Shown here in pieces: positions 6,453 to 63,999 of a stretch of 64,000 nt of DNA. The notes under the pieces are model-generated. The model did not search any database, was not told the origin of the DNA, and saw nothing but the letters and a program-made list of their open reading frames with translations. Made by a program: the position numbers and the translations under genes. This DNA is from a virus. The stretch spans positions 32,001-96,000 of the IMG/VR virus record IMGVR_UViG_3300020159_001521; one strand, 5' to 3'. The stretch's first letter is position 1. Every line of letters begins with the position of its first letter.

Positions 6453-6804
6453 CGTGTAACAACTTTATTTCCAAAGCCAAATCATTGTCAAAATTAAGAG
6501 CTATAACAGGATTCACCTTTGTCTTACTCCCCTCCTTAACCAACACTCCTATCCTCTTGAGCTTAGATATAATATTATATATCGTAGCTTCAGAGCTAGA
6601 ATGCTTCTTACAAAACTCTTCCCTATTATTAGCATAAGAAATATTCCCCTTAATAGCTGTAAAAGCAACAAGCTGTATTTCCCTCTCTGTCAAATTCAAA
6701 TCATTAACATCAGACAATATCCTATAATACTTCTGAGCTAACAAATAATTGTCAGACAATTGTCGTTTAAGCTTCTGTGAAATAATCCTTCTATTCGTTT
6801 CCAT
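6442..6804 (-). CDS. Winged-helix (RepL-like) DNA-binding protein
   Basis: LTEREIQL...SEATIYNIISKLKRIGVLVK...VNP. Confidence 0.65.
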   Translation of the reverse strand: METNRRIISQKLKRQLSDNYLLAQKYYRILSDVNDLNLTEREIQLVAFTAIKGNISYANNREEFCKKHSSSEATIYNIISKLKRIGVLVKEGSKTKVNPVIALNFDNDLALEIKLLHDGD

Positions 6805-6817
6805 ATTTAATTATACA

Positions 6818-6825
6818 CAAAGATA
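6818..6825 (-). promoter_or_regulatory. Bacteroidota sigma -7 promoter element
   Basis: TATCTTTG on minus strand, 14 nt upstream of the 6804 start. Confidence 0.65.
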
Positions 6826-6889
6826 GAATGTAAGCATCTATTTGCAAACACCACTATACACAATTTAAAAAACTAATGCCATATTATGC

Positions 6890-7147
6890 TCAAAATTCTT
6901 CTTCATCCATAGGAATTGTTGTCTTCCAAAACACAAACACCACATTAATAAAAAACAACCCTATAACAAACTCATCCTCAACACTTTCATCTTCTAACGT
7001 ATATCTCTGAGAAAATATACCAAACTTAAAATATGGTGTTCTCAACGTATTAAGCTCTATTCCAAATGTCATCTCCATGGAACCAATCCACCCATATATC
7101 AATGACACTAAACACAAAAACACCAATACAACAATAACTATATCCAT
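6890..7147 (-). CDS. Small membrane protein
   Basis: N-terminal hydrophobic helix; first gene of the leftward operon. Confidence 0.7.
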   Translation of the reverse strand: MDIVIVVLVFLCLVSLIYGWIGSMEMTFGIELNTLRTPYFKFGIFSQRYTLEDESVEDEFVIGLFFINVVFVFWKTTIPMDEEEF

Positions 7148-7358
7148 AATAAGTAAAATTTAATCATCATCATCTATTCCCACCCCCCACCCTGTAAAGA
7201 TAAGGAGTGTACAAGTAAAAAATAAAACATTTTTCCTACAGAAGTCCAAAATAAAGCTACAATCCTTTCCCAGCCTGTCTAAAAAATTTTTTTCCCAAGG
7301 CCCTTTGTAAGACAATATCCCCCTCCTTTAACCAAAAATCATCAATGCCCCCTACATT

Positions 7359-29119: not shown

Positions 29120-29437
29120 ATGAAACTAAGATTTGGTGGTAGCTTACAAATAGGAGATCCTATTTTTATTAGTTATGGAAGCAGTGTAGACTTTGGACTA
29201 TTTGCAGGATATGGAAAAGGAACTATACAATTTTATACTCCCACTGGTATAATATACCAATACGAAAACGCAATAGGAAAAGACAAAAAACCAAAGTTCT
29301 GGAAAGCATACATACATGGACAGAATATAGAATATAGAGTGGTGAAGGTGAATCCAGAAGTGCTATACAATCGTGAAGACATAGAAAACTACGAGAAAGC
29401 AATTGCAATTTTAAAACAAGAAAACATAATCAAATGA
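29120..29437 (+). CDS. Hypothetical protein
   Basis: 105 aa in operon. Confidence 0.75.
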   Translation: MKLRFGGSLQIGDPIFISYGSSVDFGLFAGYGKGTIQFYTPTGIIYQYENAIGKDKKPKFWKAYIHGQNIEYRVVKVNPEVLYNREDIENYEKAIAILKQENIIK

Positions 29438-31731
29438 TCTTAGAAAAACAAAAAGAGTCAGTTGTTCTACAAGAAGGAGAACAAACACAGGAATCAATTG
29501 GAATGTCCTTAGACTTAGATTCTGCACAGATATTGATGCAGATGTTAAGTAAGAACTTATATTCAGATGCAATAGGTTCTACAATTCGTGAGTGTGCTAG
29601 TAATGCTCTTGACAGTCACAGAAGAGCTGGTATAAAGGAAGCTATTGTTGTTTCCTTTGGATATACAAACAATAACACTTATGAATTCACTGTAGAAGAT
29701 TTTGGTATTGGTCTGGATGCAGACGATGTTAAAAACATCATCAGTAAATATGGTAAGAGTACAAAGCGTAATTCAGCTAATGAGCTGGGTATGATGGGCT
29801 TGGGCTTCAAGGCTCCTCTTGCATATTGCTCAAGCTTCTATTTCGTTGCTCGTAAGAACGGAATTGAGCGTAAATATATGATGTACGAAGGAGAAGATGT
29901 AAACACAATTGATTTGCTTTACGAAACTCCTACAGATGAGAGAAATGGTGTTAAGGTGATTGTTCCTGTTAAATCTGGTGACAAGTGGTCTTTTACATCA
30001 AAGATTAAAGAGCAGCTTGCGTATTTTGAGGATGTTTATTTTAATGTAGATGGTGTAGATAATAATTTCACTATACACAGACATGAGCACTTCCAGTTTT
30101 CTCCACTTGCTTCTGATAGCAGTTTGCACATCTGTTTAGATAATGTCTACTATCCTATTGATTTTCAGAAGATTGGCATTAATAATGTACAAATGCCTAT
30201 AGCTCTTAAGTTTGGTTTGTCAGATGCAATATTCCCTACACCAAACAGAGAATCTATTCGCTATACACAAGAAGCAAAAGCAGCTATTCTTGACAAGATT
30301 CAAAAGGTGGCTAACTACTTTGTAGAGAAGTATAATGAATCTATACAAGAGTCAGAAGACATTAAGCAAATAATGGAGTATTATGGTGATAGCGAAAGAG
30401 CTGTTAAGTTTGGTAGTTCTAAATGGAACATCAGTCCTCTGAAACAGTTTTCTACAATATCTTTTGCCACTCCTAAATACAAACATTCTGATAATGTTGA
30501 CTTTGAAAGGTTGTGGAAAATGAAAGATCAGTTGTTTGGTGAGTATTCTCTCAAGTATAGCGTGCATTCAGGAAGGATGTATTCTGAAGAAAACAACAGA
30601 TGGAATAACTTGAGCTGGTTCAATGTATTTGGTAATGACTGGAATAAGTGTATTATGATGGTGTATTCTGAGAAACTCAAAGGGTTGACAAAGGATTACA
30701 TCAGAAGCACTTACGGTAGACAAAGAGTGAAGATTGTCAAGAAGGAAAAACAATTTGTTCTTGGTAAAATGAAAAGTGCTGGTAATGGCAATTTTGATAA
30801 TTACATTAATCTTCTCAGACTAGACAAGTATCCAAAGAGTGAATGGAGAATCAGGATTAAGGACTTTCAGCTTGTTGTAAATAAGCTCACTGAGAGTTTT
30901 ATTAATCTAGATGAACTTGTTGTTCCTCAAACCTTTATTGACGCTAGGAAAAAGCAGAGAGTGAAAGCAATTGCTGCTTCACCAAAGCGTAAGAAGCTTG
31001 AAGGAGAAATCAATGTTAAACTACTTTCTCCTCTGGAGAGGTTTGTTTATGGTAAGAACTCTAAGCTTGTTCCCACCATCATCAATCTTGCAGATGCACA
31101 TAAGCAACCATCACTAACTGTGTTTGGTAAGCAGGAACATGCAGATCTGATGGACAAATGGTTTGCTGTATTCCCTAGGCACATTAAGTTTATTGTACTG
31201 TCTGAAAGAGAACTGAAAGCAATTAAGGATGTAAAAATTAGAAACTGGATTAGTATGGAAGAATTCATGGAAGGTGAACACATTGTGTTCAGAAGAGCAG
31301 CCACTGCATATCTTATACAGAAGCTTATGAATGATTATGAGTATGTGTTCGTCACTAATTTAAGTGATGTATCTATTGACCTCAATAACAAACTCAATGA
31401 TCTGAAAAACTATAAGAAAAAGTATAGGCTTGATGGTGAAAACAAGTTGTATGACGAGATAATTTCTATCGCACAAGAGAAGAATTTATTTGACAATTCC
31501 ATCTATTCTTCGTATCTTAACATGAAAGATTTCTTAGACAGGAATCGTTACATCAATAGTTTCTTGAGGCACATAGGTCGTTACAATGGATTGGCTAAGA
31601 CGGAAAAAGAAATGCTTTGTGACCTTATGAAATATCATAAACAAAAGCTTAATTGGCAGAATTATAAACTTAATGAAGAGAAACTTGAAGTTCCTACAGA
31701 GGAAACAATTGAATCTCTTGTAACATCTTAG
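29434..31731 (+). CDS. rIIA: rIIA-like protein (N-terminal GHKL ATPase)
   Basis: LYSD.I.S.IRE..SNALDSH, VEDFGIG, YG.STK, GMMGLGFKAP; paired with rIIB. Confidence 0.88.
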   Translation: MILEKQKESVVLQEGEQTQESIGMSLDLDSAQILMQMLSKNLYSDAIGSTIRECASNALDSHRRAGIKEAIVVSFGYTNNNTYEFTVEDFGIGLDADDVKNIISKYGKSTKRNSANELGMMGLGFKAPLAYCSSFYFVARKNGIERKYMMYEGEDVNTIDLLYETPTDERNGVKVIVPVKSGDKWSFTSKIKEQLAYFEDVYFNVDGVDNNFTIHRHEHFQFSPLASDSSLHICLDNVYYPIDFQKIGINNVQMPIALKFGLSDAIFPTPNRESIRYTQEAKAAILDKIQKVANYFVEKYNESIQESEDIKQIMEYYGDSERAVKFGSSKWNISPLKQFSTISFATPKYKHSDNVDFERLWKMKDQLFGEYSLKYSVHSGRMYSEENNRWNNLSWFNVFGNDWNKCIMMVYSEKLKGLTKDYIRSTYGRQRVKIVKKEKQFVLGKMKSAGNGNFDNYINLLRLDKYPKSEWRIRIKDFQLVVNKLTESFINLDELVVPQTFIDARKKQRVKAIAASPKRKKLEGEINVKLLSPLERFVYGKNSKLVPTIINLADAHKQPSLTVFGKQEHADLMDKWFAVFPRHIKFIVLSERELKAIKDVKIRNWISMEEFMEGEHIVFRRAATAYLIQKLMNDYEYVFVTNLSDVSIDLNNKLNDLKNYKKKYRLDGENKLYDEIISIAQEKNLFDNSIYSSYLNMKDFLDRNRYINSFLRHIGRYNGLAKTEKEMLCDLMKYHKQKLNWQNYKLNEEKLEVPTEETIESLVTS

Positions 31732-51166: not shown

Positions 51167-54100
51167 TTAGTATATTTTATAATAGTTGTTTATGTTGGAT
51201 TGTATAGGGATTCTAGAAGGTAATTGATTTGTGGTATACAATATAATCTCTTGCATTTCTCCATTGAATGTAAATGACCCACCAACACCACCAAGAGTAG
51301 CAAATGAAGATGCCGTATTAGATGTAGTTCCGTCTGTCAAGAAAGATGTATTTGATCCGTCAATTACCCCATTAACATATTGGAAACCATCGCTCGTTAA
51401 GTATTGAATAGCGGAATAAAGTAAAGCTTGAGCATTTATCGATATCGACCCAGTAAGAGCACTAACTGTATCTCCGTCTAATCTTCTAGCATCTATTTTA
51501 TATACAGATCCATCTATATACGGACCAAATCTAACAGTACCCGAAGAAGTACTGAAGAATATTATTACCTTAGCTATAGCAGCAGCTGGGTTATTGGTAA
51601 CAACTGAGAACATATTAGCATATCCAACATTCTGAAGTGTATTCAATCCATTTGGAATATTGAAGTTGTCATTAGTTCCATCAAAGAAAACAGCTGGTTT
51701 TCCGTTCTCCGTATCCACCACCCCAGCATTCACTATCCTCGGTTGGTTAGCAGCAGTTCCTTGAACAGCATTTCTAGCATTACCACTCTGATCATACCAC
51801 GTTGTTACAAATCCACTGTTAGCACCTACGAAGGCTACTAATGAGGCTATATCTAAATCACCCCCGAACGTGCCATATATATCCCTCTCTACGTTATCAC
51901 TACTCCTCCTCACTCTGATCAATGGACCAGTGTAGGCAGAGCTGAGGTTGCGGAGAGAATATGCTGCACTAGCTCCACTGTAGTTATCAAGTAGTGCTGT
52001 TCCGTTTCCTTGCCAGTAGATTTGGTAGTAGGAATTGATGTTGGAAGATATGGTTGGTCTGTTGGATAATTGGTTTGACATATATAACACAAGCTCAGAA
52101 GCTTCTGCGTTTGATCTTTCTAATGCAAGACCTCCTATTAAATTAAATGACGAAGAAAGAGATGTGTACGTTAATGGACCACTAAGAGAAAGTTGAACTC
52201 CGTTTAGAAATGCATTTGCAGATGAGCCTCTAGAAAAACCGCTTGTCAGATTAAATGTAGTTGATAGTTCTGAAACTGTATAATAATAGTCAGTACTACC
52301 ATCATTTTGAAGATATAAATTACCATCAGAATATCTACCAAAGAATACTGATGGTGGTCCAGTAACTGAACCAACTCCAAATCCTATAGCAGACGGACTG
52401 TTACTTCTTGCAGTATAAAACATAGACCAATCCAAATTGCTTGTTTCAATGTTCGGCATAGTAAAACTATCCGTCCCATCAAAGAACAAAGATGGTTTAT
52501 TCCCCTCACTCTCCACTCCTCCACTGTTAACTATTCTTGGTTGAGAAGCTGCTGTGGCTTGAATGGCATCTCTTCTTTGAGAGACGGTGGTGGTGGTGGC
52601 TGTGTAGGGTTGTAAAGTACCTTCACTTAGTTGAGCGCCCCAAATGTATACTCCCGAACCAACAACTCCAAGATAGCTAAAAGTAGATCCGTTTGTCAAT
52701 AGCCCACATTGAATAATGTGAGCACCAGTTTTGTTAGTGTTTCCAGTTACTGTACATCTGTACCATCCATCTCCAACTGGAGTTATCGAATTTCCCAAAT
52801 TTACACTAGCTCCAGTGGCATTACTTGAAAATACGGTTCCATTAGATAGATTAAATACGCATCCAAAGTAATCAAATGGGGCACTACCTAAAAACATACC
52901 AACACTAGCAAAAGTTCTTTCTGCAGCTTTCAAATAAAAAGATACAGTAAATGTAGATGCTGTTGCTATGCTATATGTCTGCCCAATCCAGTGCTGGTCA
53001 TTTACAGCAGTTTCATTAAGTTTATCAGCAGTTAGTGTTCCATCGGGAGCAGCTGTACTGTCTTGAGTGATAGATGAATTAGATTTACTCCAACTAGCAT
53101 TCTCAAATGTTTGACTCTGCAACAACAGATTCTGATAGTTATTATCTTGTGTGTACCACTTAGTGACAAAAGCATTTGCGCCATTGACAGCTGTTGTGGT
53201 GGTTGGGATGTAGGGTTGGAGGATGCCCGTGTTTAGTTGTGCTCCCCATACATATATCCCCGAACCAGCGGTTCCAATATAAAATCGTTGAAATGAATTA
53301 TCAAGTATTTCTATTTGTACAGAATGATTTCCAATGGTGTTAGTGTTGCCAGTGACAGAACATCTGTACCAGCCATTCCCAACAGACTGAATAGATGAAG
53401 ATATAAAAACTGCAGCTGCATCACTTCCATTTTTATATACAGTACCATTTGACAAATCAAAATAAGAGTTAAAGTTGCTATATGTGCCGCTACTTAGATA
53501 AAAAACTACAAATATTTTTGACCTCTCTGCTGCTTTAGCATAAAATGACAATGTGTAAGTAGATGATGCAGGAACATTAGATCCTTGATATGCAGCATGT
53601 TGCCCACCAACAGCAGTCTCCGTAATCTTATCAGCAGTAAGTGTACCATCGGGGGCTATAGTAGCATTTGCAGTTATAGTACTACCAACTTTAGTCCAAA
53701 CTGCATTCGTAAAATCCTCCGAGTTCGTCAAAAGATTCTGTCCACCCGTAAATGACAACAGAGAAGCTACATCCAAATCACCACTGTATGTACCACCAAT
53801 ATCTGTCTCTGCGTTGTCAGAGCTTCTTCTCACTCTTATTAATGGTCCTCTGTATGAAGAGGATAGGTTTCTTAATGAATAAGCAGCTGCTGCTCCCCCG
53901 AACTGATCCAATAACCCACTACTAGCACCAGTCCAATGGGTTTGGTAATAAGCTCCTATGTTACGTTCGATATCTGCTCTAGTGGATGTACGGTCTGAGT
54001 TGTATACAATGATCTCACCAATCTCACCGCCCATAAAAATTTCATTAGCATTTAGTGAACCTCTTGTTGCTCCAATTTGAGTAACTGGATTTACAGAACC

Positions 54101-55789
54101 AGCAACAGTAGTTGAAACAGATGCCCCAGCTATAGAATCAGCAAAAGCAGTTATTGAAGAACCCGTAAATATACCACTAGCAACAAGATAGTTTTGTAAT
54201 GAAGTATAAGCAAAAGCAGTTGGAAATGTAGTTGCATCAGCTCTTTGGGCCTCAAATCTTTTATTCGAGTTATTCAAATAAAGCAGAGCATCTCTAGAGA
54301 AGTTAGAAGAAGAACCTCTACTATAAATAGTGTTTGTAACAACGGAAGGAATAGTGTTAACTGCTGTAGAGAATATAGACCAAACTGGTAGAGCTATATC
54401 TGTAACACTTAAGAAATCATCCACACCATCAAACCTTATCGAAGCCTTCCCATTCTCTCTCTCTATAACTCCACCACCAACAATTCTTGGTTGGTTGGCA
54501 GCTGTAGATTGAGAGGCGTCTCTTCTGAGGATGGCTGCAGTTGTGGTCACTTGATAGGGTTGTAGCCAACTAGATTGAGAGAGTTGAGCGCCCCAAATGA
54601 AAACGCTTTCTGAAGCAAAAAGTTGAAACGAAGCAACAGAAGCTACACCAACAGTTAAACATGTTGTACCAACATAAAGTCTAACCCACCCATTTGGCAA
54701 TATTTGTCTACCAAAAAAAGCACAACTAGAAGAAATTGCATCTGTATCAAAGTTATAAGTGACTTGAGGATAACCAACAGAAGCACCCCATTTAGCGTTC
54801 ATTTGAGCCAAATCGCCACTTAGATCTAAATGTAAAGATACAGTTGATGTAGATGTTTTCTTTATATAAGCAGAAAATGTGTAAAAGGATCCAGCTGTTT
54901 TAGTATAAGTCTGACCTAATCTAGAAACAACTCCCGAAGTATATGTTATAGTGTCTGCAGTTAGAGTGCTGTTTGGTGCTGTTGTAGAATTTGGAGTGAC
55001 TGTAGCTATCGAACCAAACCCAGCATTATTAGCCCACGCAGCATTTTCAAATTGCTCAGAAAATGTCAACAAATTCTCTCCATTACTATCTTGTGTATAC
55101 CATTTAGTAACAAATCCATCCCCCGAACGGGCAGCACTTATGGTCACTTGATATGGTTGAGCTGTGATGCCAGCGTTTAGTTGGGCGCCCCAAATTAATA
55201 AGTCAGCCGACGAAGTGCTGCTTCTTACTATTGATTGAAAGTTACCAGCAACAGCAACAAATGAAAATGTAAATCTTTGCCAGTCATTAGTAGCAGTAAA
55301 ATTTCCGCTTACTATACTCCCATTACACGGAGCCATAGCAAACTGCTGGTTAACACCAGTGTTTGACTTAGCCCAAACAGACATTGTGTAACTCTGCCCA
55401 ACAGTTAACGCAATATTTTGATCTAACCAATAAGGTAAAGCTGTACTAAGAAGCCTAGAAGCTGTATTCCCACCTAATGGATCTGTCCCAGCATTTGCGG
55501 TTATTGTAACACTTGCCTTACCCCAGCTAGCACTTGTAAATTCTTGACTAACCCTAAACAGATTCTCATAACCAACAAAGTTCATCAGAGCTGTTTCATC
55601 AATTGCACCTCCACTAAATCCAATATCTTGTTCTGCATTATCAAATGATCTTCTCACCCTAACAGCAGATCCACCGTATGCACTGCTTAAGAGCCTTGTA
55701 GAATAGGCTGCTGCAGCTCCTCCAAATGTATCAAGAGGAGGAACTATATTCCCACGAGAAGAAGCAATTATGCCTAATGTTAAACTCAT
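51167..55789 (-). CDS. Large fibre/spike protein with repeated lectin-like domains
   Basis: Three AAAAYS.R.L...VRRS.DN.E.DI...WY.Q...QPRIV modules and four NLL..S..F....W...WGAQL modules; likely start MSLTLGIIASS. Confidence 0.85.
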   Translation of the reverse strand: MSLTLGIIASSRGNIVPPLDTFGGAAAAYSTRLLSSAYGGSAVRVRRSFDNAEQDIGFSGGAIDETALMNFVGYENLFRVSQEFTSASWGKASVTITANAGTDPLGGNTASRLLSTALPYWLDQNIALTVGQSYTMSVWAKSNTGVNQQFAMAPCNGSIVSGNFTATNDWQRFTFSFVAVAGNFQSIVRSSTSSADLLIWGAQLNAGITAQPYQVTISAARSGDGFVTKWYTQDSNGENLLTFSEQFENAAWANNAGFGSIATVTPNSTTAPNSTLTADTITYTSGVVSRLGQTYTKTAGSFYTFSAYIKKTSTSTVSLHLDLSGDLAQMNAKWGASVGYPQVTYNFDTDAISSSCAFFGRQILPNGWVRLYVGTTCLTVGVASVASFQLFASESVFIWGAQLSQSSWLQPYQVTTTAAILRRDASQSTAANQPRIVGGGVIERENGKASIRFDGVDDFLSVTDIALPVWSIFSTAVNTIPSVVTNTIYSRGSSSNFSRDALLYLNNSNKRFEAQRADATTFPTAFAYTSLQNYLVASGIFTGSSITAFADSIAGASVSTTVAGSVNPVTQIGATRGSLNANEIFMGGEIGEIIVYNSDRTSTRADIERNIGAYYQTHWTGASSGLLDQFGGAAAAYSLRNLSSSYRGPLIRVRRSSDNAETDIGGTYSGDLDVASLLSFTGGQNLLTNSEDFTNAVWTKVGSTITANATIAPDGTLTADKITETAVGGQHAAYQGSNVPASSTYTLSFYAKAAERSKIFVVFYLSSGTYSNFNSYFDLSNGTVYKNGSDAAAVFISSSIQSVGNGWYRCSVTGNTNTIGNHSVQIEILDNSFQRFYIGTAGSGIYVWGAQLNTGILQPYIPTTTTAVNGANAFVTKWYTQDNNYQNLLLQSQTFENASWSKSNSSITQDSTAAPDGTLTADKLNETAVNDQHWIGQTYSIATASTFTVSFYLKAAERTFASVGMFLGSAPFDYFGCVFNLSNGTVFSSNATGASVNLGNSITPVGDGWYRCTVTGNTNKTGAHIIQCGLLTNGSTFSYLGVVGSGVYIWGAQLSEGTLQPYTATTTTVSQRRDAIQATAASQPRIVNSGGVESEGNKPSLFFDGTDSFTMPNIETSNLDWSMFYTARSNSPSAIGFGVGSVTGPPSVFFGRYSDGNLYLQNDGSTDYYYTVSELSTTFNLTSGFSRGSSANAFLNGVQLSLSGPLTYTSLSSSFNLIGGLALERSNAEASELVLYMSNQLSNRPTISSNINSYYQIYWQGNGTALLDNYSGASAAYSLRNLSSAYTGPLIRVRRSSDNVERDIYGTFGGDLDIASLVAFVGANSGFVTTWYDQSGNARNAVQGTAANQPRIVNAGVVDTENGKPAVFFDGTNDNFNIPNGLNTLQNVGYANMFSVVTNNPAAAIAKVIIFFSTSSGTVRFGPYIDGSVYKIDARRLDGDTVSALTGSISINAQALLYSAIQYLTSDGFQYVNGVIDGSNTSFLTDGTTSNTASSFATLGGVGGSFTFNGEMQEIILYTTNQLPSRIPIQSNINNYYKIY

Positions 55790-55797
55790 ATAATGAT

Positions 55798-57267
55798 TTA
55801 TACAGTTATGTCTCCAAATAAATACCACTCATCTGTTCCTATCTTCACAAGAGAAGCACCGCTATATTGAGCAGCGAGTTTAAGAGCTCCAAGAGCACTT
55901 CTCACAGTTACACCTGCTCCTGGAACAATTGATGTTTGTCCTGCTCCATATTGAGCTATGTCTATTTTTGTTCCTATTGGGAATGTTATTGAGCTGTTTG
56001 GTGGAACAGTGAGAGTGTTTGCTGCTCCAACGTTTGTTTCAACCAACTTACCTCTATCAGCCAAAGCAAGTGTATATGATGCAGTTTGTCTGTTTGTAGT
56101 GATGGTTTCTCGCAACACTCCATTTATTAACAATCCACCACCTAGAAAATTATCAGCTGTACCTTGTCCATATAATCCCCAGCCTGTGTTATTAGACCAT
56201 TCAATACTCCTCCAATCTGCTGCAGCGGTCAATGTAGGTTGAACATATAAACCTCTTGTTATACCATTTGCCCCTCCTGCTTGATTAATAGTAGGATTAA
56301 GCAATGCCAAAATTGTAGTAGCGTTTCCACTTGTAGGAGCAAAAGTTTCAGTTCCCTGTATAACTATATTACCACCACTTGTTCTTACAACATTTGCACT
56401 ATGGTTTGCAAGTAATACATTCGTTGCATTAAAATATGTTTGTAAAGTGATTACATTACTACTCGCCCAATTTGCTTCTAATAAAATATTTTGATTTTGT
56501 TGTGCCCTTAAAGTATTTGAGTTAAGAGTAGGAGTTGTTAATGAACTTCTTGAAAATGCATCACCATTATTAGATATTTGAAATTGGGTAACTCCACCTA
56601 AATTTCTGGTAATAAAATGTAATGTATTTAAATTATCTGTTCCTGTAATATTTAAAATATCAGTAAAAAGACTTGTTCCATTAACCTGCAATCTCTGACC
56701 ACCGTCTAAGAATGTACCTCCGTTTTGAAGAACTACATTTCTTGTAATACCGAACATAGTCATTCCTACTGTGTCATTTGTACCGAATGTTAATGGTGCA
56801 GTTGTTCCTGTTAAGAATGTAAGACCGTTTACAAGTGATGAACTTGACCGAAACCTTGCTTGATTAGCTGATAATGTACTGTGATTTGAGCCGAATACTT
56901 GTAATGATAAACCTCCTACATTGCTTAATATAAGTATATCTGAGATAGCACTTGTTCCTGTCGATGGATTACTTATAAGCATTCTTACAGTTCCATCAAC
57001 TGTTTTTACTATACTTAAATCATTTGAAGGCGTATTAGTCCCAATCCCCAACCTCCCTTGAGCATTATCCCAAAACAGATTATTAGATCCTGTAATGTTT
57101 GTAGCAGCATTCCAGAATGTCACTTGACCATTTGCACCACCACCTGTAATAGTGCCACCACCACCACCACCGCCTGAAGCAGCTGTTACAGCAGCGAGTC
57201 TATCAAGTTGCATTGATATATTGTATAGGAGATTAGATTCCTGACTCCAACCTATTTGTCTTGGCAT
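55798..57267 (-). CDS. Fibre protein
   Basis: RLGIGTNTP motif; C-terminal YTL.L.D.GK...FPIGT.I.I.Q.GAGQ...W.LFGD. Confidence 0.85.
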   Translation of the reverse strand: MPRQIGWSQESNLLYNISMQLDRLAAVTAASGGGGGGGTITGGGANGQVTFWNAATNITGSNNLFWDNAQGRLGIGTNTPSNDLSIVKTVDGTVRMLISNPSTGTSAISDILILSNVGGLSLQVFGSNHSTLSANQARFRSSSSLVNGLTFLTGTTAPLTFGTNDTVGMTMFGITRNVVLQNGGTFLDGGQRLQVNGTSLFTDILNITGTDNLNTLHFITRNLGGVTQFQISNNGDAFSRSSLTTPTLNSNTLRAQQNQNILLEANWASSNVITLQTYFNATNVLLANHSANVVRTSGGNIVIQGTETFAPTSGNATTILALLNPTINQAGGANGITRGLYVQPTLTAAADWRSIEWSNNTGWGLYGQGTADNFLGGGLLINGVLRETITTNRQTASYTLALADRGKLVETNVGAANTLTVPPNSSITFPIGTKIDIAQYGAGQTSIVPGAGVTVRSALGALKLAAQYSGASLVKIGTDEWYLFGDITV

Positions 57268-57269
57268 AA

Positions 57270-58235
57270 TTAATAAGTTTTATTTAATACAAAAATATCA
57301 CTGTATATACTGTTTCCTGCATTGTTACTTCCCCACTGAACTGTGATGTTTAATGTATTACTGATTGTGGTGTTAAATGTTGTATTGTTAACTACGTTAA
57401 ATGCAAATCCTTGAACTGATGCATTACTTGTTTTAGCGTAATGGAATGTTCCTAAAGAGACGATAGATGCTACGCCAGCTGTTCCTAGTTGTCTGATTGT
57501 GAAATCTACGTTTAAAGAAAACACATCATTTGTAATATTTGTAATTGGTTGAGCTCCACTGTCTAATAAAATGACAGATCCTGTTTTCACTCTAATTCTT
57601 ATAGTTTGGTTGTTGGCAGCGTTTAACACTCCTCCCATAATAGCTCTGAAGCTATCTCCAACAGCAAATCCATTAGCTGGAACACTTAATGTTCCTACAC
57701 CTCCATTTATTAATGATGTCTCTACTGTTGTTCCTGTTACGGGAGTGCTGTTAGCTGTCTCAGCAAATAGTCCACCACTACTTATAGGACCTGGAGGACC
57801 TTGAATACCTTGCACACCCTGAACACCTTGTATTCCTTGAATACCTTGAATGCCTTGAGGACCCTGAGGTCCTTGCAGATCACCTACATCATCCCAAGTG
57901 GTTGTTGCTGTATTCCATACATATAGAGAACCATCAGATTCAATAATCCAAGCTGTGCCTGCTGCACCAGGACTACCGCCAGCTCCTGCTAAGAATGCTG
58001 CAAGAGTGGGATAGGAACCAAGCACTGTAAGAGCAGCACCTGTTTCTCCTTGAGGTCCTTGCACACCTTGGATTCCTTGTATACCTTGAGGACCAGGAAC
58101 ACCTTGAGGACCTTGTGGGCCTACAATAACAGATGCAACATCTTTTATGAGAAGGTCTAAATTAAGCCAGCCCTTGTAACCGTTGCACGGTTTACAAACA
58201 CTTTCCCAAAATCCAGTTTTGACGAACGTAGGCAT
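57270..58235 (-). CDS. Collagen-like fibre protein
   Basis: Two Gly-X-Y (GPQ/GIQ) tracts plus beta-rich C-terminal domain. Confidence 0.85.
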   Translation of the reverse strand: MPTFVKTGFWESVCKPCNGYKGWLNLDLLIKDVASVIVGPQGPQGVPGPQGIQGIQGVQGPQGETGAALTVLGSYPTLAAFLAGAGGSPGAAGTAWIIESDGSLYVWNTATTTWDDVGDLQGPQGPQGIQGIQGIQGVQGVQGIQGPPGPISSGGLFAETANSTPVTGTTVETSLINGGVGTLSVPANGFAVGDSFRAIMGGVLNAANNQTIRIRVKTGSVILLDSGAQPITNITNDVFSLNVDFTIRQLGTAGVASIVSLGTFHYAKTSNASVQGFAFNVVNNTTFNTTISNTLNITVQWGSNNAGNSIYSDIFVLNKTY

Positions 58236-58318
58236 CTTAATTTATTAAAATGTTATAAAGGTATGATAATTGATATTATCTACAATGTCATTAATAAAAT
58301 TTAGTTTAACCAAAAAGA

Positions 58319-58447
58319 TTAATTTCCCTGTCCTCTGTATTTGCTAACAGGTTTATCTTTTGGTCCTCTGCTCTTTTGAGCTTTTCCTTTCTTTCTTTTT
58401 CCAAAGGTGAGCTTCTTAGACTCTCCTGATGATTTTAACTTTGCCAT
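58319..58447 (-). CDS. Small basic protein (42 aa)
   Basis: MAKLKSSGESKKLTFGKRKKGKAQK...KYRGQGN. Confidence 0.7.
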   Translation of the reverse strand: MAKLKSSGESKKLTFGKRKKGKAQKSRGPKDKPVSKYRGQGN

Positions 58448-58465
58448 AACTTATTGATTTTCAAG

Positions 58466-59218
58466 TTAATTTTTTCTCTTACCGTCATCTTGAGTGGCAT
58501 ATTTAATACCCATAATTGTTCCTACTATTGAAAAAGCATTTGTTAATAGTACACTAAACATGTTACTCCAAGTTGAACCAATGATCTGTGTATCCTTACC
58601 AGTGATCATAGCCATCCAATATAAAGCGGTTGTTATAACACCCACCCCAACAATTACTATCAAAGCAACCACTACAATTGTCTTAATTAACTCGGATTGA
58701 CTTTTCTTCATCAGTACATCCAAGTCATTTAACGCAGCATTCTTCTCTACTTCAATTGCATTTTTCAGTTGCTGTGATTTATCTAACTCAGTTTGCAAAT
58801 CTTTTGAAAGAGCGTCTATTTTATTTTTGCTATTGACAGTTTCTGTTATGTCAGTGGCAATCTTCATAACCTTAGTGATAGTACCGCTTTCATCAAATAT
58901 TGGGTTGTAAGTTGCTTGTAGATAGATAGAACTTCCGTCAATTTTCTTTCTCTCAAACTCACCTTCATAGAACTTACCGTTCTTTAAGGTTTCCCAAAAC
59001 TTTTTATACTCATCCGATTTTGAATATTCGTAGCTAACAAAAATGCTATGGTGTTTTCCAATGAGTTGTTTGTGGTCGCCCTCCTCATATCCCATCGCTG
59101 ATAGGAATATAGAATTCATACCTAATATATAACCGTCAAGGTCAAAATATATAATGGCATTACTTCTATTGATTGCTTCAAGCCTACTTAATAACTCTTC
59201 TTTAGATAGGTTTTTCAT
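58466..59218 (-). CDS. PAS/PAC sensor domain + coiled coil + 2 TM protein
   Basis: AINRSNAII.FDLDG...N..FL.AMGY...GKHH..F...EY..FW..L..G.F..GEF.R...ATYNPI.D..G...KV.K.ATDIT. Confidence 0.88.
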   Translation of the reverse strand: MKNLSKEELLSRLEAINRSNAIIYFDLDGYILGMNSIFLSAMGYEEGDHKQLIGKHHSIFVSYEYSKSDEYKKFWETLKNGKFYEGEFERKKIDGSSIYLQATYNPIFDESGTITKVMKIATDITETVNSKNKIDALSKDLQTELDKSQQLKNAIEVEKNAALNDLDVLMKKSQSELIKTIVVVALIVIVGVGVITTALYWMAMITGKDTQIIGSTWSNMFSVLLTNAFSIVGTIMGIKYATQDDGKRKN

Positions 59219-59494
59219 TTATTGAGCTGTTACGCTATCAATAACTACACTATCAACAATCTCAATATCTGTAATTTCTACAGGAACAGCTACACTATCA
59301 GCAGGAGCAGTAGCAAAAGCATCGCTTACAAAGTTGATAATTGCTTCAAAGTTCAATGACTCTTCGCTAATATATCCTTTCTGAGTAGCAAATACTCCAG
59401 CAGCAATAACCACTGCAGATAGAATGATTACAATAGGCTTTTTACCTTTGAACTTACCGATTAAGGGCAACAGTTTACTTATTAAATTTTTCAT
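59219..59494 (-). CDS. Single-TM membrane protein
   Basis: Basic N-terminus, hydrophobic helix, acidic tail. Confidence 0.75.
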   Translation of the reverse strand: MKNLISKLLPLIGKFKGKKPIVIILSAVVIAAGVFATQKGYISEESLNFEAIINFVSDAFATAPADSVAVPVEITDIEIVDSVVIDSVTAQ

Positions 59495-59498
59495 ACTT

Positions 59499-59756
59499 TT
59501 AATTTATGTTTTCGTTATTATCTTTTTTGTTAATGAACTTATCTACAGATGCTATACCAAAGGAACCTAAAGTTAACCACAGGAATGAATTGAATATAAA
59601 GTCTTGCACTACTAATTCCTTACCTAAAGCACCAGTGATGATGTCAGCAAAAGCAAACCCAACCATCATTAGGAATGCTAAAAAACCAATGAATGATTTT
59701 TCATTTATGTTGTTGTCATCACTGAATAGCGATTCAAAGAACTTCTTCATTTTCAA
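59499..59756 (-). CDS. Putative holin (2 TM)
   Basis: D.N.INEK..IGF...two TM helices...FGIASVDKF; adjacent to endolysin. Confidence 0.65.
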   Translation of the reverse strand: MKMKKFFESLFSDDNNINEKSFIGFLAFLMMVGFAFADIITGALGKELVVQDFIFNSFLWLTLGSFGIASVDKFINKKDNNENIN

Positions 59757-60218
59757 TCATTTAAAGGGTACGTAAGATGTCTTTCCACCAGATTTAACAG
59801 CCTTCAAGATTTGCTTACGTTGCTTACCAGTTGATTCATAAGATACATGTACCCAGTCAGGATTATTGTCTGTACCAAATTCCCAAATAAGTTGATCAAA
59901 TACTAAGTTATTCTTAATAAAATCAAATATTTGTTTGTTAGTAATAGAGGTGCCATCCATATCCAGGTCAATCGCTTCGCCCGAACAATGTTGTGAACTT
60001 AAACTTCCCCCAATCGCAACATTGAGCTCTTTTGATCTGTAGCCAGAACTGATGTGGATGGGCACTTTAAAATGTTCTCTTATAGGCTCAAATATATTCT
60101 CAGCCAGCTTCTTAAAGTTCTCCAGATGTTCTCCAGAAGGAGTGTTGTTAATACCTTTACGTTTAGCAGTTTCACTTCTGCTCACCTCAGCTAGAGATAG
60201 ATGTTTTGAAATTTGCAT
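59757..60218 (-). CDS. Endolysin, peptidase M15 family
   Basis: ISSGYRS..LN.AIGG...SQH..GEAID...FDQLIWE...WVHVSY. Confidence 0.92.
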   Translation of the reverse strand: MQISKHLSLAEVSRSETAKRKGINNTPSGEHLENFKKLAENIFEPIREHFKVPIHISSGYRSKELNVAIGGSLSSQHCSGEAIDLDMDGTSITNKQIFDFIKNNLVFDQLIWEFGTDNNPDWVHVSYESTGKQRKQILKAVKSGGKTSYVPFK

Positions 60219-60224
60219 AGTTTA

Positions 60225-60836
60225 TTATTTTTTAAGTTTTATTTTCCAATAAGCTCCTGCACCATATTGTAGAGCACCTTGTGTATTTATTCCTAAAGAA
60301 CCTCCAAACAGAAAATCATTTTTAGTTTTTAGAATTGCTCCCATACCTATTTGATTGATTTCAGGAGATGCTTGGATGGTTCCTCCTACATATAGTTGCG
60401 TTACTTTTTTTGCAGGTAGGGTGATAGTTTCTTTTATAATAGGATAGCGAATGTTCACCTGTGAAGACCTACCTGTAATAATGTTCTTTTGAACAGTGTC
60501 TGTAATAAATACATACCCATTACTGTCTATACGTATACTATCTGAGTGGATGTTCTTGGCTAGTAGTGTATTTACTACCTCCTGATATTGAATAAGAAGT
60601 TTGGCGTAGTTAGTATCTGGTATATAATGGTTGATTATAGTGTCATGTGATTCCACCTGAATAGTGTTGATCACTTTTGGTTTACTAACTATCAAAGAAT
60701 CCTTGACAACCCATGTAGTATCTCTCACCACTGTAGGCACTCCAGGATCTACAGATTGGGAACATTTCTGAAGAAGGATGGTTGCTAGTAATACAACTAT
60801 TAGTATTTTAAAAAAGTTGTTCTTTATAAACTGCAT
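60225..60836 (-). CDS. Putative spanin-like membrane protein
   Basis: N-terminal TM plus Cys, DT-rich linker, beta-stranded C-terminus; adjacent to endolysin. Confidence 0.55.
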   Translation of the reverse strand: MQFIKNNFFKILIVVLLATILLQKCSQSVDPGVPTVVRDTTWVVKDSLIVSKPKVINTIQVESHDTIINHYIPDTNYAKLLIQYQEVVNTLLAKNIHSDSIRIDSNGYVFITDTVQKNIITGRSSQVNIRYPIIKETITLPAKKVTQLYVGGTIQASPEINQIGMGAILKTKNDFLFGGSLGINTQGALQYGAGAYWKIKLKK

Positions 60837-60837
60837 A

Positions 60838-61149
60838 TTAACCTTTTAGATTATAATAAATAGTAGAGATGTACTGACCTAGAAGCAAAAGTGCACCTAT
60901 GATGGATATAACCCAGTAAACCTTCTTTCTGAAGTATTCATCTCTTTGTTGCTTCTTCTCAAGAATATAAATCTTTTCTTTCAACACTTCAATATCATCC
61001 ACAAAGCCTCCTCTCTTTGTTAAGGAGTTACCAAGGATTGCCTCAACCACTTGATTCAATTTTTTATCGATAGAATCTATTTTCTCTTCCATCTCTGTGA
61101 GTCTAATTTCCATCTGAGAAAGTTCTGCTGTTATGTTGCTGTTTTCCAT
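60838..61149 (-). CDS. Coiled-coil protein with C-terminal TM (XhlA/holin-accessory-like)
   Basis: Heptad repeats plus C-terminal hydrophobic helix. Confidence 0.65.
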   Translation of the reverse strand: MENSNITAELSQMEIRLTEMEEKIDSIDKKLNQVVEAILGNSLTKRGGFVDDIEVLKEKIYILEKKQQRDEYFRKKVYWVISIIGALLLLGQYISTIYYNLKG

Positions 61150-61158
61150 GAGTAGTTA

Positions 61159-63999
61159 TTAGTAGAAAGCGTTCCAAGCGGTTCCGTTATATCCGTAGTG
61201 TCTATTAAGGTCTGTATCGTAAACTATCAACCCAGCTGCTGGCGTAACAATTGCATTGCGTTGAGTGGTGGTCATACGAGGAGGTAAGAAACCTTGTGTA
61301 GTTGAATCCACTTGAAGCTTAGCTGAAGCAACTGGTGTAGCAACACCCACACCAACACTTGCTGCAAAGTAATTCTTATCATCAGCACCTGCTTGGTATA
61401 TACCCCATCTATTTGTTAATACAACAGTTGTACCGCCCCACTCTTTCAAATCATTAATTCTTACAGCAGCATAATCAGTGAATGTCACTGTACCTGTCAA
61501 GCTTGCTGGGTAAACACCCTGTATAAAGAGTGTAGCACCTTTATCTACGGTTCCACTATTTGCTCCACTTGCTTGCATTTGAAGCTGCATAACAGACAAT
61601 GGTCTGTACCCTGTTGTGGCACTGTTGGCCATTGTAACAGTACCAGTGGTGTCAAATTGTATGTTTGCTATATTAGCAGAGCCTGACCAAAGAGCATCTC
61701 CAAAAAGTGTAGTGGCTCCATTAAATCTGAAATAGTTAGCTCCTGTAACTGATGAGTAAACATTACCATCTGCACCACGGTTTCCTGCAGGAATATTCAA
61801 AACCTGTGAACCAAGAACACTTATTGTGTTAGCATTTGTAAAATTGGCTGCAAGTACTGTAGGACTCACTGTAAGCTTACCGTTAAGTAAGTTCTGCGCA
61901 CTACCTATGCCAAGCAATCCATATCCTCCATTATTACTCCATTCTACAGAGCGCCAATTACTTTCACTGACAACATTGTTTAGTACAGGGTTTATATAGA
62001 GACCTCTTGTAATAGCGTTTGCTGTTCCTGTCTGATTGATGTTTGGACTTAGTTCTAACGTATTGTATGCTATTGTTCCAGATACTGGAGCATATGATGC
62101 TGCTATTTGAATTGTTCTAGGCTTTGTAGCATGTGTTGCTCCAAAAAGATTAATTGATGTACCAAGGGAAGAGCATGATGATACACTAAATGTTCCGTCT
62201 GTTGCATCAGTTTTATATATATATCTCTTAGAAGCACCTTGTACCCTAAACCAAGCACCATCTCCTGCATATACATCTCCAGAATCTGCAACTTTCAGAC
62301 CTACGGATGCACTAGAGTTTTGTACAATAAGTGAGTTTGTTGTAGCGTCATTTCCTACACCAGAAATATGAAGTCTACTTGTTGGGGTTATTGCTATTCC
62401 TAAGTTTCCACCTAAGTAGTTATTAGCAGTTCCTGCTCCGTACAACCCCCAGCCTAAGCTATTTGACCACTCTATAGAACGCCAATCTACAGCACTTGTT
62501 ATCGTTGGATTAACATGCACACCTCTAGTAATTCCTGTTGCTGTTCCACCTTGAGCAATAGTTGGCTGAATTGAAAATGCCGTATACCTTATATCAGTTT
62601 GTGTTGGAGTGAATGACGATGCTGTTCTGATTCCAATTGCGTGCACACCAGTAGGAAGACCAGTTGTTGTGTACACTGGTGATAAATCAATACCAACCAA
62701 ATCCTCACTATTTGCAAAAGAGCTTAATTGAGATGTTACATGAAATCCTCTTGCTACATTAGAGGCAGCTATGACGGTGTTGTTAAGGAATAGCTTATTG
62801 CCTGGACTAAATGTAAACCCAGCATTCCCTGCTTGCGATGATGCTCCTGTCCAATATGTCACCTGACCAGATACGCCAGTCCCTGTTATGTTTCCTCCAG
62901 GAATTGCTTGTGTAGAAAGAACACCATTTGCATCAGCAACCACCATTCTGCTTCCAGTGCCCTGCAGATTAGATAGAGTGTTCACTCCTGTAGTCTTAAA
63001 TGTTCCTAAAATCTCAAAGAGATTTCCAGAGTTTGTAATTCCACCTACAGTGATGTTTCCACCAGAAAGAAAGTACATTCTAGAACCTGATCCACTTTCA
63101 TTAATTGCTAAGTCGTTGTTGAACGGACTTATATCCCATGTTTTATTGGCTGAAGATGAGTTTACTATACCTATAGCTGAGGCAGTGTTTGTAGTACTGA
63201 CAATCATTCCACCGCTAGTGTTAGCAAGTATTTGGAACGCATGACTGTATGTTCCTGTAGTTGGCGTTGGTATTGCTGTGTTAGTATTTACAAGAACACT
63301 TGTGCCGTTGTCATATACCAAGCTGTTAACTATTGAGCTTGTTCCTGTGGCTTTCGGAACATATCCTGATGTCAAAGCTCCTGTAATAAAATTTGTAGTG
63401 GCGCTTGATATCCTAAATTTAACATTTGTACCATCAAACCATAAGTCACCATTAGCTGGTGATGTTGGAGTAAAGCCAGAAGTGGCTAAGTTTAATTGAG
63501 CCTCTGCAACACTGTTTATACCTATGTTTACATAAGCACTAGTTCCAGAAGATGTACCTGACCTTACCTTTCCAGGTATTACAGCATTACCTGTACCAAA
63601 ATTAACCGTACCGTTGCTTCCAGTACTAAGATTTAATGTAGATGCATTTATCGTAAGAGCAGTGTACGCAGATGTTCCCCTGTTGTAGCTTATAATTAAT
63701 CCTGTAGAGCTACCTGTTAAATATCCAAACTCTAAACCAGCGCCTGTTGTTGGTAGTGTTGAGTTGGTTGTTCTCATTGTACCTGCAAACTCAGATGGTC
63801 CGCTTCCTGCAGATATTGCTCCAGTTATCTTTGCACTTCCTGCTACCTGAAGTCTATTAATACCATCGTCTGTTCTTGTTCCTAACAACAAGTTACCACC
63901 TAACCAAGTTGATACAGTGGATGTGTTTCCTATAAATGTTCTGTTAGAATCAGCAATTGCCTCTCCTATAGAATCAGAACCAATGAATATGTTATTTGA
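61159..63999 (-). CDS. Long fibre protein (5' truncated by window edge)
   Basis: Frame open to the end of the window; G/T/S/N-rich; C-terminal STTQGFLPPRMTTTQRNAI.TPAAGL.VYDTD motif. Confidence 0.88.
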   Translation of the reverse strand, partial: SNNIFIGSDSIGEAIADSNRTFIGNTSTVSTWLGGNLLLGTRTDDGINRLQVAGSAKITGAISAGSGPSEFAGTMRTTNSTLPTTGAGLEFGYLTGSSTGLIISYNRGTSAYTALTINASTLNLSTGSNGTVNFGTGNAVIPGKVRSGTSSGTSAYVNIGINSVAEAQLNLATSGFTPTSPANGDLWFDGTNVKFRISSATTNFITGALTSGYVPKATGTSSIVNSLVYDNGTSVLVNTNTAIPTPTTGTYSHAFQILANTSGGMIVSTTNTASAIGIVNSSSANKTWDISPFNNDLAINESGSGSRMYFLSGGNITVGGITNSGNLFEILGTFKTTGVNTLSNLQGTGSRMVVADANGVLSTQAIPGGNITGTGVSGQVTYWTGASSQAGNAGFTFSPGNKLFLNNTVIAASNVARGFHVTSQLSSFANSEDLVGIDLSPVYTTTGLPTGVHAIGIRTASSFTPTQTDIRYTAFSIQPTIAQGGTATGITRGVHVNPTITSAVDWRSIEWSNSLGWGLYGAGTANNYLGGNLGIAITPTSRLHISGVGNDATTNSLIVQNSSASVGLKVADSGDVYAGDGAWFRVQGASKRYIYKTDATDGTFSVSSCSSLGTSINLFGATHATKPRTIQIAASYAPVSGTIAYNTLELSPNINQTGTANAITRGLYINPVLNNVVSESNWRSVEWSNNGGYGLLGIGSAQNLLNGKLTVSPTVLAANFTNANTISVLGSQVLNIPAGNRGADGNVYSSVTGANYFRFNGATTLFGDALWSGSANIANIQFDTTGTVTMANSATTGYRPLSVMQLQMQASGANSGTVDKGATLFIQGVYPASLTGTVTFTDYAAVRINDLKEWGGTTVVLTNRWGIYQAGADDKNYFAASVGVGVATPVASAKLQVDSTTQGFLPPRMTTTQRNAIVTPAAGLIVYDTDLNRHYGYNGTAWNAFY

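Follow-up and report, generated by a model that had tools for sequence, protein, structure and literature searches.

What is a PAS sensor with two membrane-spanning helices doing at the end of a phage lysis cassette? The question is raised by a gene in the stretch of DNA analysed here (the window, 64,000 nucleotides), which spans 32001-96000 of an IMG/VR virus record; the record is 113,680 bp long, has direct terminal repeats and is estimated to be complete. The phage, with its ~114-kb genome, is uncultured. Our answer is that the gene encodes a putative one-component, signal-gated accessory regulator of host lysis, a reading to which we give a probability of about 0.55.

The lysis cassette of the window

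The gene is the last in a run of six, all of them on the minus strand:

58466..59218, minus strand: PAS / signalling helix / two-TM hairpin protein, 250 aa, single-PAS form (ORF; Pfam PAS; AF2 model; 68 IMG/VR loci of the same architecture)
59219..59494, minus strand: TM91, small membrane protein of 91 aa with 1 TM, adjoining the PAS gene (weak Phage_holin_10 match, E=0.029)
59499..59756, minus strand: TM85, 85 aa, 2 TM, charged C-tail, a holin candidate (by size, TM content and position)
59757..60218, minus strand: M15 peptidase endolysin (PF08291, 2.8e-19; phrog_894 endolysin, 3.8e-37)
60225..60836, minus strand: 203-aa protein with a hydrophobic segment at the N-terminus, 'spanin-like' in an earlier note (ORF; cassette-linked in loci L314 and L315)
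60838..61149, minus strand: 103-aa coiled-coil protein with a TM at the C-terminus (phrog_937, 'hemolysin', E=7.6e-05)

The six genes are co-oriented and abutting, with zero gap between TM91 and the PAS gene, and they follow each other in the order that the earlier note on this DNA had described. No terminator-like sites were found in 57000-61400, hence none within the cassette, and promoter-like matches across the same interval were at chance level. Small TM genes are present in the cassette as that note had said, but its labels 'spanin-like' and 'holin-like' reflect size, TM content and position: TM85 matched no family model in Pfam, PHROGs or NCBIfam, and the 203-aa protein none in Pfam or NCBIfam. 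Relatives of TM91 were found in 7 loci (neighbour cluster C17), and in many loci members of the TM85 family are direct neighbours of the endolysin or of the PAS gene.

Architecture of the 250-aa protein

Within the protein we distinguish three parts:

58850..59203, minus strand: PAS domain, residues 6-123, predicted to be cytoplasmic (Pfam/NCBIfam; AF2 PAS fold; likeness to the PAS of the L205 kinase)
58604..58846, minus strand: predicted single continuous helix, residues 125-205, a coiled-coil linker running into TM1 (AF2; likeness to the L205 module protein)
58493..58591, minus strand: invariant 33-residue stretch, residues 210-242, comprising the end of the outer loop, TM2 and a juxtamembrane KYAT (invariance in alignments)

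Membership of the PAS superfamily is clear from Pfam, where residues 22-126 matched PAS_9 (E=3.8e-12; 46.8 bits against a cut-off of 27), PAS_3 (1.8e-11; 44.6 against 25.6), PAS_4 (1.1e-08; 35.7 against 23.1) and PAS (1.1e-08; 35.5 against 22.6), and the NCBIfam sensory_box model matched the protein at 1.6e-14. The AF2 model, for which 77 homologues served as input (mean pLDDT 75, pTM 0.44), places a PAS fold at residues 6-123, a helix at about 125-206 and, after a turn of four residues, another helix at 211-245; all AF2 models here are monomers of moderate confidence. A hydropathy scan gave two TM segments, and a short charged tail follows TM2. Pfam found neither MCPsignal nor HisKA/HATPase, GGDEF or EAL in the protein at E<=0.1. 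The description of the product as a PAS domain, a coiled coil and two TM helices without a kinase, MCP or GGDEF domain is thus borne out by Pfam, NCBIfam, AF2 and hydropathy. JGI names the homologues 'methyl-accepting chemotaxis protein', an assignment that we reject in view of the missing PF00015 match (E<=0.1); the precomputed Pfam lists of the 370-aa homologues likewise hold PAS families only, save for one extra PF17202 entry on P0093. Nor is the protein a sensor histidine kinase: the HisKA/HATPase_c core is absent from it and is found as a separate gene in sister phages.

Type of the PAS domain

By sequence, the nearest PDB entries are MmoS (3ewk, 6.1e-09), phototropin LOV1 and Aer (8dik, 1.6e-04). 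Fold comparison points to NifL, MmoS, LOV-kinase chimeras and those LOV proteins that carry C-terminal helices, with a Foldseek probability of 1.00 for LOV, NifL and MmoS, while identity to the listed PDB matches is low (12-26%). The PAS domains of MmoS, NifL, LOV proteins and Aer bind flavin. In NCBIfam there was a weak match to NifL and also a weak one to DosP, a heme protein. What the window protein shares with LOV proteins, YF1 (4gcz), NifL (2gj3), MmoS (3ewk) and Aer (8dik) is the PAS core followed by a long, signal-carrying C-terminal helix; whereas these flavin PAS sensors end in a kinase, NifA-binding or chemoreceptor output, the window protein ends in a membrane hairpin. A LOV photoreceptor was considered and rejected: in the phmmer alignment the Cys of phototropin LOV1 falls on Ser58 of the window PAS, so that the photo-active Cys of the GxNCRFLQ motif is replaced by a serine that is invariant in the family.

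Among cellular PAS domains, the closest (40-54% identity) belong to long multi-PAS proteins, mostly with an MCPsignal output and some with GGDEF/EAL outputs. Insofar as they lie mostly in multi-PAS MCPsignal proteins, the chemoreceptor-type PAS to which the earlier note had pointed holds. These domains are also what links the window protein to the multi-PAS soluble chemoreceptors (PAS repeats plus MCPsignal, the BdlA-like class); in contrast to them it is without MCPsignal, and its nearest relative of all is the PAS of a phage histidine kinase (58%). By its sequence relationships the domain would be a sensor of the chemoreceptor or flavin type, with flavin and heme both as candidate cofactors.

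A strictly conserved membrane hairpin

The most conserved part of the protein is the C-terminal hairpin. No variation was seen at residues 210-242 (TQIIGSTWSNMFSVLLTNAFSIVGTIMGIKYAT) among 58 distinct PAS-PAS proteins (alignment A2), nor among 77 mixed single- and double-PAS proteins (alignment A3), both alignments having the window sequence as row 1. Synonymous codon diversity in this stretch is 0.35-0.42, level with the remaining gene. A constraint on DNA or RNA is thereby ruled out as the cause of the invariance, and the constraint therefore acts at the protein level, where it is extreme. The whole 250-aa protein is under strong purifying selection in the codon-level analysis. Along TM2, as read from the sequence, a Ser or Thr recurs at every fourth residue (S218, S222, T226, S230 and T234), forming a stripe.

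The coiled coil, the two TM helices and the 210-242 motif together define what we call the CC-2TM module, and with all of these at its C-terminus the window protein is a member of the family. A profile search (HMMER, 1.84 billion representatives) gave 114 clusters at 50% identity, mostly of proteins of 130-230 aa, in which the module is always C-terminal; with hundreds of IMG/VR contigs carrying it, we regard the module, as defined by its sequence profile, as a large phage-only family. It is covered by no Pfam, PHROGs, NCBIfam or PADLOC model, and a feature search of the ESM Atlas with the module gave no usable match. The best PHROGs match of the 250-aa protein was phrog_1544, a family without assigned function (E=0.0084). 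We also rejected the hairpin as a paralogue of TM85, which would have suggested an antiholin of the dual-start kind: hhalign of A2 against A1 gave a probability of 2%.

Homologues and distribution

Among 5.8 billion proteins searched with the 250-aa protein we obtained 4,903 matches. The best 120 of the 4,903 are 367-377 aa long, are 70-79% identical to the query and carry two PAS domains with the same C-terminus. In IMG/VR this PAS-PAS form is found at no fewer than (at least) 182 loci and the single-PAS form at 68 (245-262 aa, 72-92% identity to the window protein), so that an assembly artefact is ruled out for the latter. Intact homologues on viral contigs number in the thousands, and the Lake Mendota series is the source of many of the loci. 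Among the genomes of prokaryotes (one per species, 185,579 species) there were four matches, all on MAG contigs and from four unrelated phyla, a scatter that looks like phage contigs mis-binned into MAGs. Cultured phages (INPHARED) gave three weak PAS-only matches and no member of the family.

A kinase, a receiver and a hairpin in sister phages

The majority of the family is without a PAS domain. These proteins have ~190 aa, with a small N-terminal element, a predicted helix of 114 residues, a turn and TM2 (AF2, mean pLDDT 82). At 81 of 89 non-redundant PAS-less loci the module gene is directly preceded by a response regulator of 143-145 aa that has PF00072 as its sole domain, and at 76 of the 89 a histidine kinase lies upstream of this receiver. 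The kinases of these operons contain PAS, sometimes GAF + PAS + PAS, plus HATPase_c, and are either membrane-anchored or soluble. Lacking an output domain, the receiver presumably acts on the hairpin protein directly. At the PAS-fused loci no kinase or receiver of the operon kind was found (0/160 loci, 1.84 Mb). We also considered that the pair might be encoded elsewhere in the same phage and rejected this: the complete 113,680-bp genome has no receiver, and its sole HATPase_c match is the N-terminal GHKL ATPase of a 765-aa ORF (29434-31731) without kinase features.

PAS is one of several sensors fused directly to the CC-2TM module, others being GAF (P0251, 2.5e-17) and a SOUL heme-binding domain (P0252, 1.2e-19). 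Since kinase/receiver operons and GAF and SOUL fusions share the hairpin module, we take the PAS domain as the input and the hairpin as the output. Hence the term 'output-less', which the earlier note had used for this protein, has to be given up: the two-TM hairpin is itself a conserved output module, driven elsewhere by a kinase/receiver pair, GAF or SOUL.

The PAS domains of the operon kinases are 55-63% identical to that of the window. The closest case is L205, where a soluble kinase shares its N-terminus with the window protein (58% identity over residues 1-143, and the same value for window residues 1-125) and the module protein of the same locus matches the rest, its residues 75-193 being 66% identical to window residues 131-249. 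Judged by these two alignments, the window protein is the N-terminal PAS of a kinase fused straight onto the hairpin module, and as such a one-piece short-circuit of the signalling unit that sister phages encode in three genes.

Origin of the single-PAS form

Which of the two fused forms came first was addressed with a tree of 89 PAS domains, a quick IQ-TREE maximum-likelihood run with SH-aLRT as its support measure. All fused domains, PAS1, PAS2 and single-PAS alike, group in one clade (SH-aLRT 96), whose sister is the N-terminal PAS of the L205 and L167 kinases (SH-aLRT 93). Two single-PAS sequences are basal with short branches, and the PAS2 stem is long. At sites where PAS1 and PAS2 differ, the window PAS mostly holds the state of the kinase outgroup. 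Because of the basal position and the outgroup states the single-PAS form looks ancestral, and the PAS-PAS form appears, from these sequences, to be a later tandem duplication. The reverse, a single PAS arising from PAS-PAS by a one-crossover deletion, was rejected: there is no single block switch, outgroup states are kept, the form is basal and it occurs at 68 loci. What this phage adds is the single-PAS, ancestral-like form, which can be traced directly to a kinase of the L205 type and its module protein.

Linkage to lysis genes

Genes in the loci were called with a simple ORF picker; locus contexts were then obtained by calling the genes of all related loci and clustering the neighbours. 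Non-redundant loci were counted if they had three or more genes on either side. An endolysin lay no more than five genes away in 46/46 single-PAS loci, in 44/51 PAS-PAS loci and in 28/67 operon-type loci, these loci being from related phage lineages and as samples not fully independent. A random gene in a phage of ~150 genes would lie as close to a single endolysin in roughly 5-7% of cases by our own estimate. In a separate count of 45 single-PAS loci the endolysin was directly adjacent in 35, and among 67 PAS-PAS loci, near-duplicates kept, it lay within four genes in 60 and directly adjacent in 32.

The recurrent neighbours include endolysins of four unrelated types, GH19 (PF00182, phrog_181), GH24 (PF00959), M15 and PG_binding_1 + phrog_3000, as well as Phage_holin_4_1 proteins and the TM85 family. 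Gene order varies: the PAS gene may precede or follow the endolysin, and TM85 may be found on either side. Given these differing orders, the lysis linkage has outlived module exchange. The earlier note had placed the gene in a lysis cassette and had suggested looking for PAS-2TM genes beside endolysins in phages; with 46/46 and 44/51 fused-form loci near an endolysin, four endolysin classes and shuffled orders, such a linkage was indeed found, and not a set of homologues unconnected with lysis genes. The operon-type loci are less often near an endolysin, and we note as an observation that counts against a lysis regulator that the ancestral unit is accordingly less lysis-tied than the fused forms.

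The gene is not indispensable to such a cassette. We compared 37 loci that have an M15 endolysin 80-90% identical to that of the window and at least 2.5 kb on both sides. The PAS gene was present in 13/37 and absent from 24/37. L314 and L315 are ordered as the window is (CC-TM, 203-aa protein, M15, TM85, ..., 42-aa basic protein), keep the 203-aa protein with the cassette at 75-77%, and in L314 two other membrane proteins of 93 aa occupy the slot of TM91 and the PAS gene. The PAS gene is thus optional and accessory. Since close relatives with the same cassette lack it, the role of an essential holin is unlikely.

DISCUSSION

A gene that is accessory, linked to endolysins and built as a one-piece version of a kinase/receiver/hairpin unit probably adjusts host lysis to an intracellular signal, through its predicted PAS-hairpin product. 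Mechanistically, the cytoplasmic PAS would sense how the infected cell is faring by binding a small molecule or cofactor indicative of its state. From the PAS a C-terminal helix is predicted to run unbroken via the coiled coil into TM1, and through such an unbroken helix conformational or register changes could pass directly to the two-helix hairpin. The hairpin would then probably self-assemble, or engage an invariant membrane target, and alter the permeability or potential of the membrane; the holin of the phage itself (TM85-type or holin_4-type) would in consequence fire earlier or later, and the time of holin firing would in turn set the release of the M15 endolysin. We infer lysis timing as the controlled process, and the sign of the effect, the ligand and the oligomerisation are inferred with it.

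Features of the holin type are present: two TM helices, a charged tail and an endolysin adjacent or within five genes. Membership of a described holin family is rejected, since the 250-aa protein was without a match to any holin model of Pfam, PHROGs or NCBIfam. The hairpin is invariant though the holin candidates that accompany it vary (TM85-type, holin_4-type, or neither recognised). Together with the missing homology to TM85 this disfavours a classical antiholin that serves one holin. Instead we favour a self-assembling or host-targeted device of permeability or depolarisation, which would trigger or restrain the holin. That the hairpin is in no holin or antiholin family of Pfam, PHROGs or NCBIfam and unrelated to TM85 is also an observation that counts against a lysis regulator.

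Other explanations have to be weighed against a signal-gated accessory regulator of lysis. The protein might be a sensor-gated membrane effector with a job outside lysis, such as superinfection exclusion, disturbance of respiration or transport in the host, or some other part of host takeover, and its location might simply reflect a tendency of small accessory membrane-protein genes to gather in the lysis region. An optional gene would fit this, as would the L314 slot filled by other small TM proteins, the 39/67 operon-type loci without a recognised endolysin within five genes, and a hairpin that stays invariant whatever the holin type, just as a conserved host target would predict. However, the linkage of the fused forms through four endolysin classes and reshuffled gene orders (46/46 and 44/51) is hard to explain without a functional tie, and no PADLOC defence family matched, by which a known defence system is also rejected. 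We consider such an effector unlikely, though by no means negligible.

The probability falls further for the idea that the protein is the main holin of the phage, a class-II-like two-TM holin with a regulatory N-terminal PAS. It is improbable in spite of the two TM helices, the short charged C-tail, the endolysin nearby and a Ser/Thr-rich TM2 like that of pore-lining helices: a holin is required for lysis and should be present in all close relatives, yet 24 of the 37 endolysin-matched loci do without the gene, and in most loci other candidates (TM85 family, Phage_holin_4_1) stand alongside. Known holins are also usually less conserved than the hairpin is here. Least credible of all, and already contradicted, is the idea that the gene is what remains of a decayed host chemoreceptor, or that its product is a decoy for host PAS signalling, without a function in the membrane. 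The nearest cellular PAS domains in multi-PAS chemoreceptors and the chemotaxis name given by JGI might point that way. But purifying selection is strong along the entire protein, where signs of a degenerate host fragment were looked for; the intact viral homologues run to thousands, the closest PAS relative is that of a phage kinase and not of a host protein, and the membrane module is invariant. Of the interpretation given in the earlier note, membership of the lysis cassette thus stands, while the decoy for host sensors finds no support, and neither does the missing output: the protein has an invariant membrane effector of its own and no chemoreceptor signalling domain.

How would a signal-gated accessory regulator compare with known systems? 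In lambda (S105/S107) and in the pinholin of phage 21 (S68/S71) the antiholins are near-identical isoforms of their holin. The window protein resembles these in being small and N-in/C-in with at least two TM helices, small or polar TM residues and a charged C-tail beside an endolysin; in contrast to them, its hairpin is without homology to TM85, has a 125-aa sensor attached and is far more conserved than its neighbours. Bacteria control the holin-like Cid/Lrg proteins through LytSR and CidR, a chromosomal and transcriptional control via a DNA-binding regulator. The likeness to the phage kinase/receiver/hairpin operon is conceptual, a two-component sensor being tied to holin-like membrane proteins that govern lysis, but the phage receiver lacks an output domain, and the window protein does without the relay, its sensor being fused directly to the hairpin. 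To our knowledge, signal-dependent timing of lysis has been well studied only as lysis inhibition, in T-even-like phages, ICP1 and N4, where the cue is periplasmic or comes from superinfection.

In function this lysis inhibition is the closest system. In T4, holin T is held by the antiholins RI, which is periplasmic, and RIII, which is cytoplasmic; the periplasmic superinfection signal is sensed by the small periplasmic domain of RI, which binds the periplasmic domain of T (PMC11413866, PMC8385771). Lysis inhibition is also described for the Vibrio phage ICP1 (PMC7182436). What would be shared is an accessory, signal-sensing protein encoded near the lysis genes that shifts the firing of the holin and is dispensable for lysis. 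Compared with T4, the window protein differs in its predicted cytoplasmic PAS sensor and in a two-TM hairpin output unrelated to RI, RIII and T. Among the papers that our literature search listed, none joined a PAS domain with phage lysis, in agreement with the earlier note, to whose author no PAS-regulated phage lysis was known; for two-component systems, kinases or sensors encoded by phages the search gave one preprint, which was unrelated.

Taken more broadly, the family might represent a phage-borne chain in which a PAS/GAF kinase with its receiver, or a fused PAS, GAF or SOUL domain, acts on an invariant hairpin as its non-transcriptional output and so sets the moment of lysis according to the redox, energy or metabolite state in the infected cell. 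We put this forward tentatively, as slightly less than an even bet. If true, it would be the first lysis clock gated by a cytoplasmic signal, and the three-gene form would be the first complete two-component system borne by phages whose output is a membrane effector. Timing of lysis is a central trait of phage life history. The family is very abundant in lake and marine viromes and joins PAS, GAF or two-component sensing to a membrane output in lysis cassettes. If this output controls lysis, phages would also read the internal physiology of the host to time its bursting, with consequences in natural waters for burst size, for the release of carbon and for the dynamics between viruses and their hosts. 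The module offers a new and compact sensor-to-membrane output whose natural one- and three-component versions can be compared directly and tested at the bench. The carriers of such a chain are uncultured freshwater and marine phages.

Sensor domains joined to the coiled-coil and membrane module

The C-terminal coiled coil and two-helix membrane hairpin of the PAS-gene protein (the CC-2TM module), which we read as its output part, is also found fused to other domains among the proteins matched by its profile search. It is joined to a GAF domain (2.5e-17) in P0251 and to a fragment of a SOUL heme-binding domain (1.2e-19) in P0252; hence, besides PAS, at least two more sensor-type domains are joined directly to one output. 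A C2H2-like zinc-finger segment is fused to the module in P0243, a weak match (0.0014).

In operon-type loci, a PAS histidine kinase and a receiver-only regulator usually precede a PAS-less module gene; in 40 of these loci (L086-L132 and related), a conserved 176-aa protein (cluster D3; for example L097:6330-6857) is encoded immediately 3' of that gene. In many cases two further conserved proteins, of 131 aa (D5) and 407 aa (D6), come after it; these matched nothing in Pfam and PHROG searches. The three may be additional components of the module unit, or structural genes.

The only HATPase_c match in the whole phage lies in the following ORF, in which no kinase or receiver features were found:

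29434-31731 (+), 765-aa ORF with an N-terminal GHKL-type ATPase (HATPase_c_3, 2.3e-07)

Surroundings of the lysis cassette

The cassette is flanked on both sides by tail-fibre-like genes; only 18 bp separate the 3' end of the PAS gene from a small basic ORF:

51167-58235 (-) and 61159-63999 (-), tail-fibre-like flanks
One flank (-), 321-aa collagen-repeat protein (PF01391, tail-fibre PHROGs)
Same flank (-), 489-aa protein with virion-structural and minor-tail PHROG matches
Same flank (-), 1553-aa protein containing internal repeat modules, recognised by eye
Opposite flank (-), ORF of at least 946 aa
58319-58447 (-), 42-aa lysine-rich ORF with a C-terminal YRGQG-type motif

Family-model searches gave no match for the 42-aa ORF. 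Many related loci have a similar ORF of 42-48 aa (K42/K48) close to their lysis cassette; one of them is L314 (7298-7426), a close relative lacking the PAS gene. There, two 93-aa multi-TM proteins, likewise unmatched by family models, occupy 6719-7278, between this ORF and the homologue of TM85, the 85-aa holin candidate. The region acts like an exchange point for small membrane proteins.

Homologues on MAG contigs

Only four 'genome' matches were obtained (L082-L085), all on GTDB MAG contigs, with bins placed in Ignavibacteria, Saprospira, Flavobacteriales and Saccharibacteria. Since their copies of the phage gene are 76-81% identical, these contigs probably derive from phages and ended up in MAGs through binning. 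The Bacteroidota/Ignavibacteria group accounts for three of the four bins, a weak hint at the host range.
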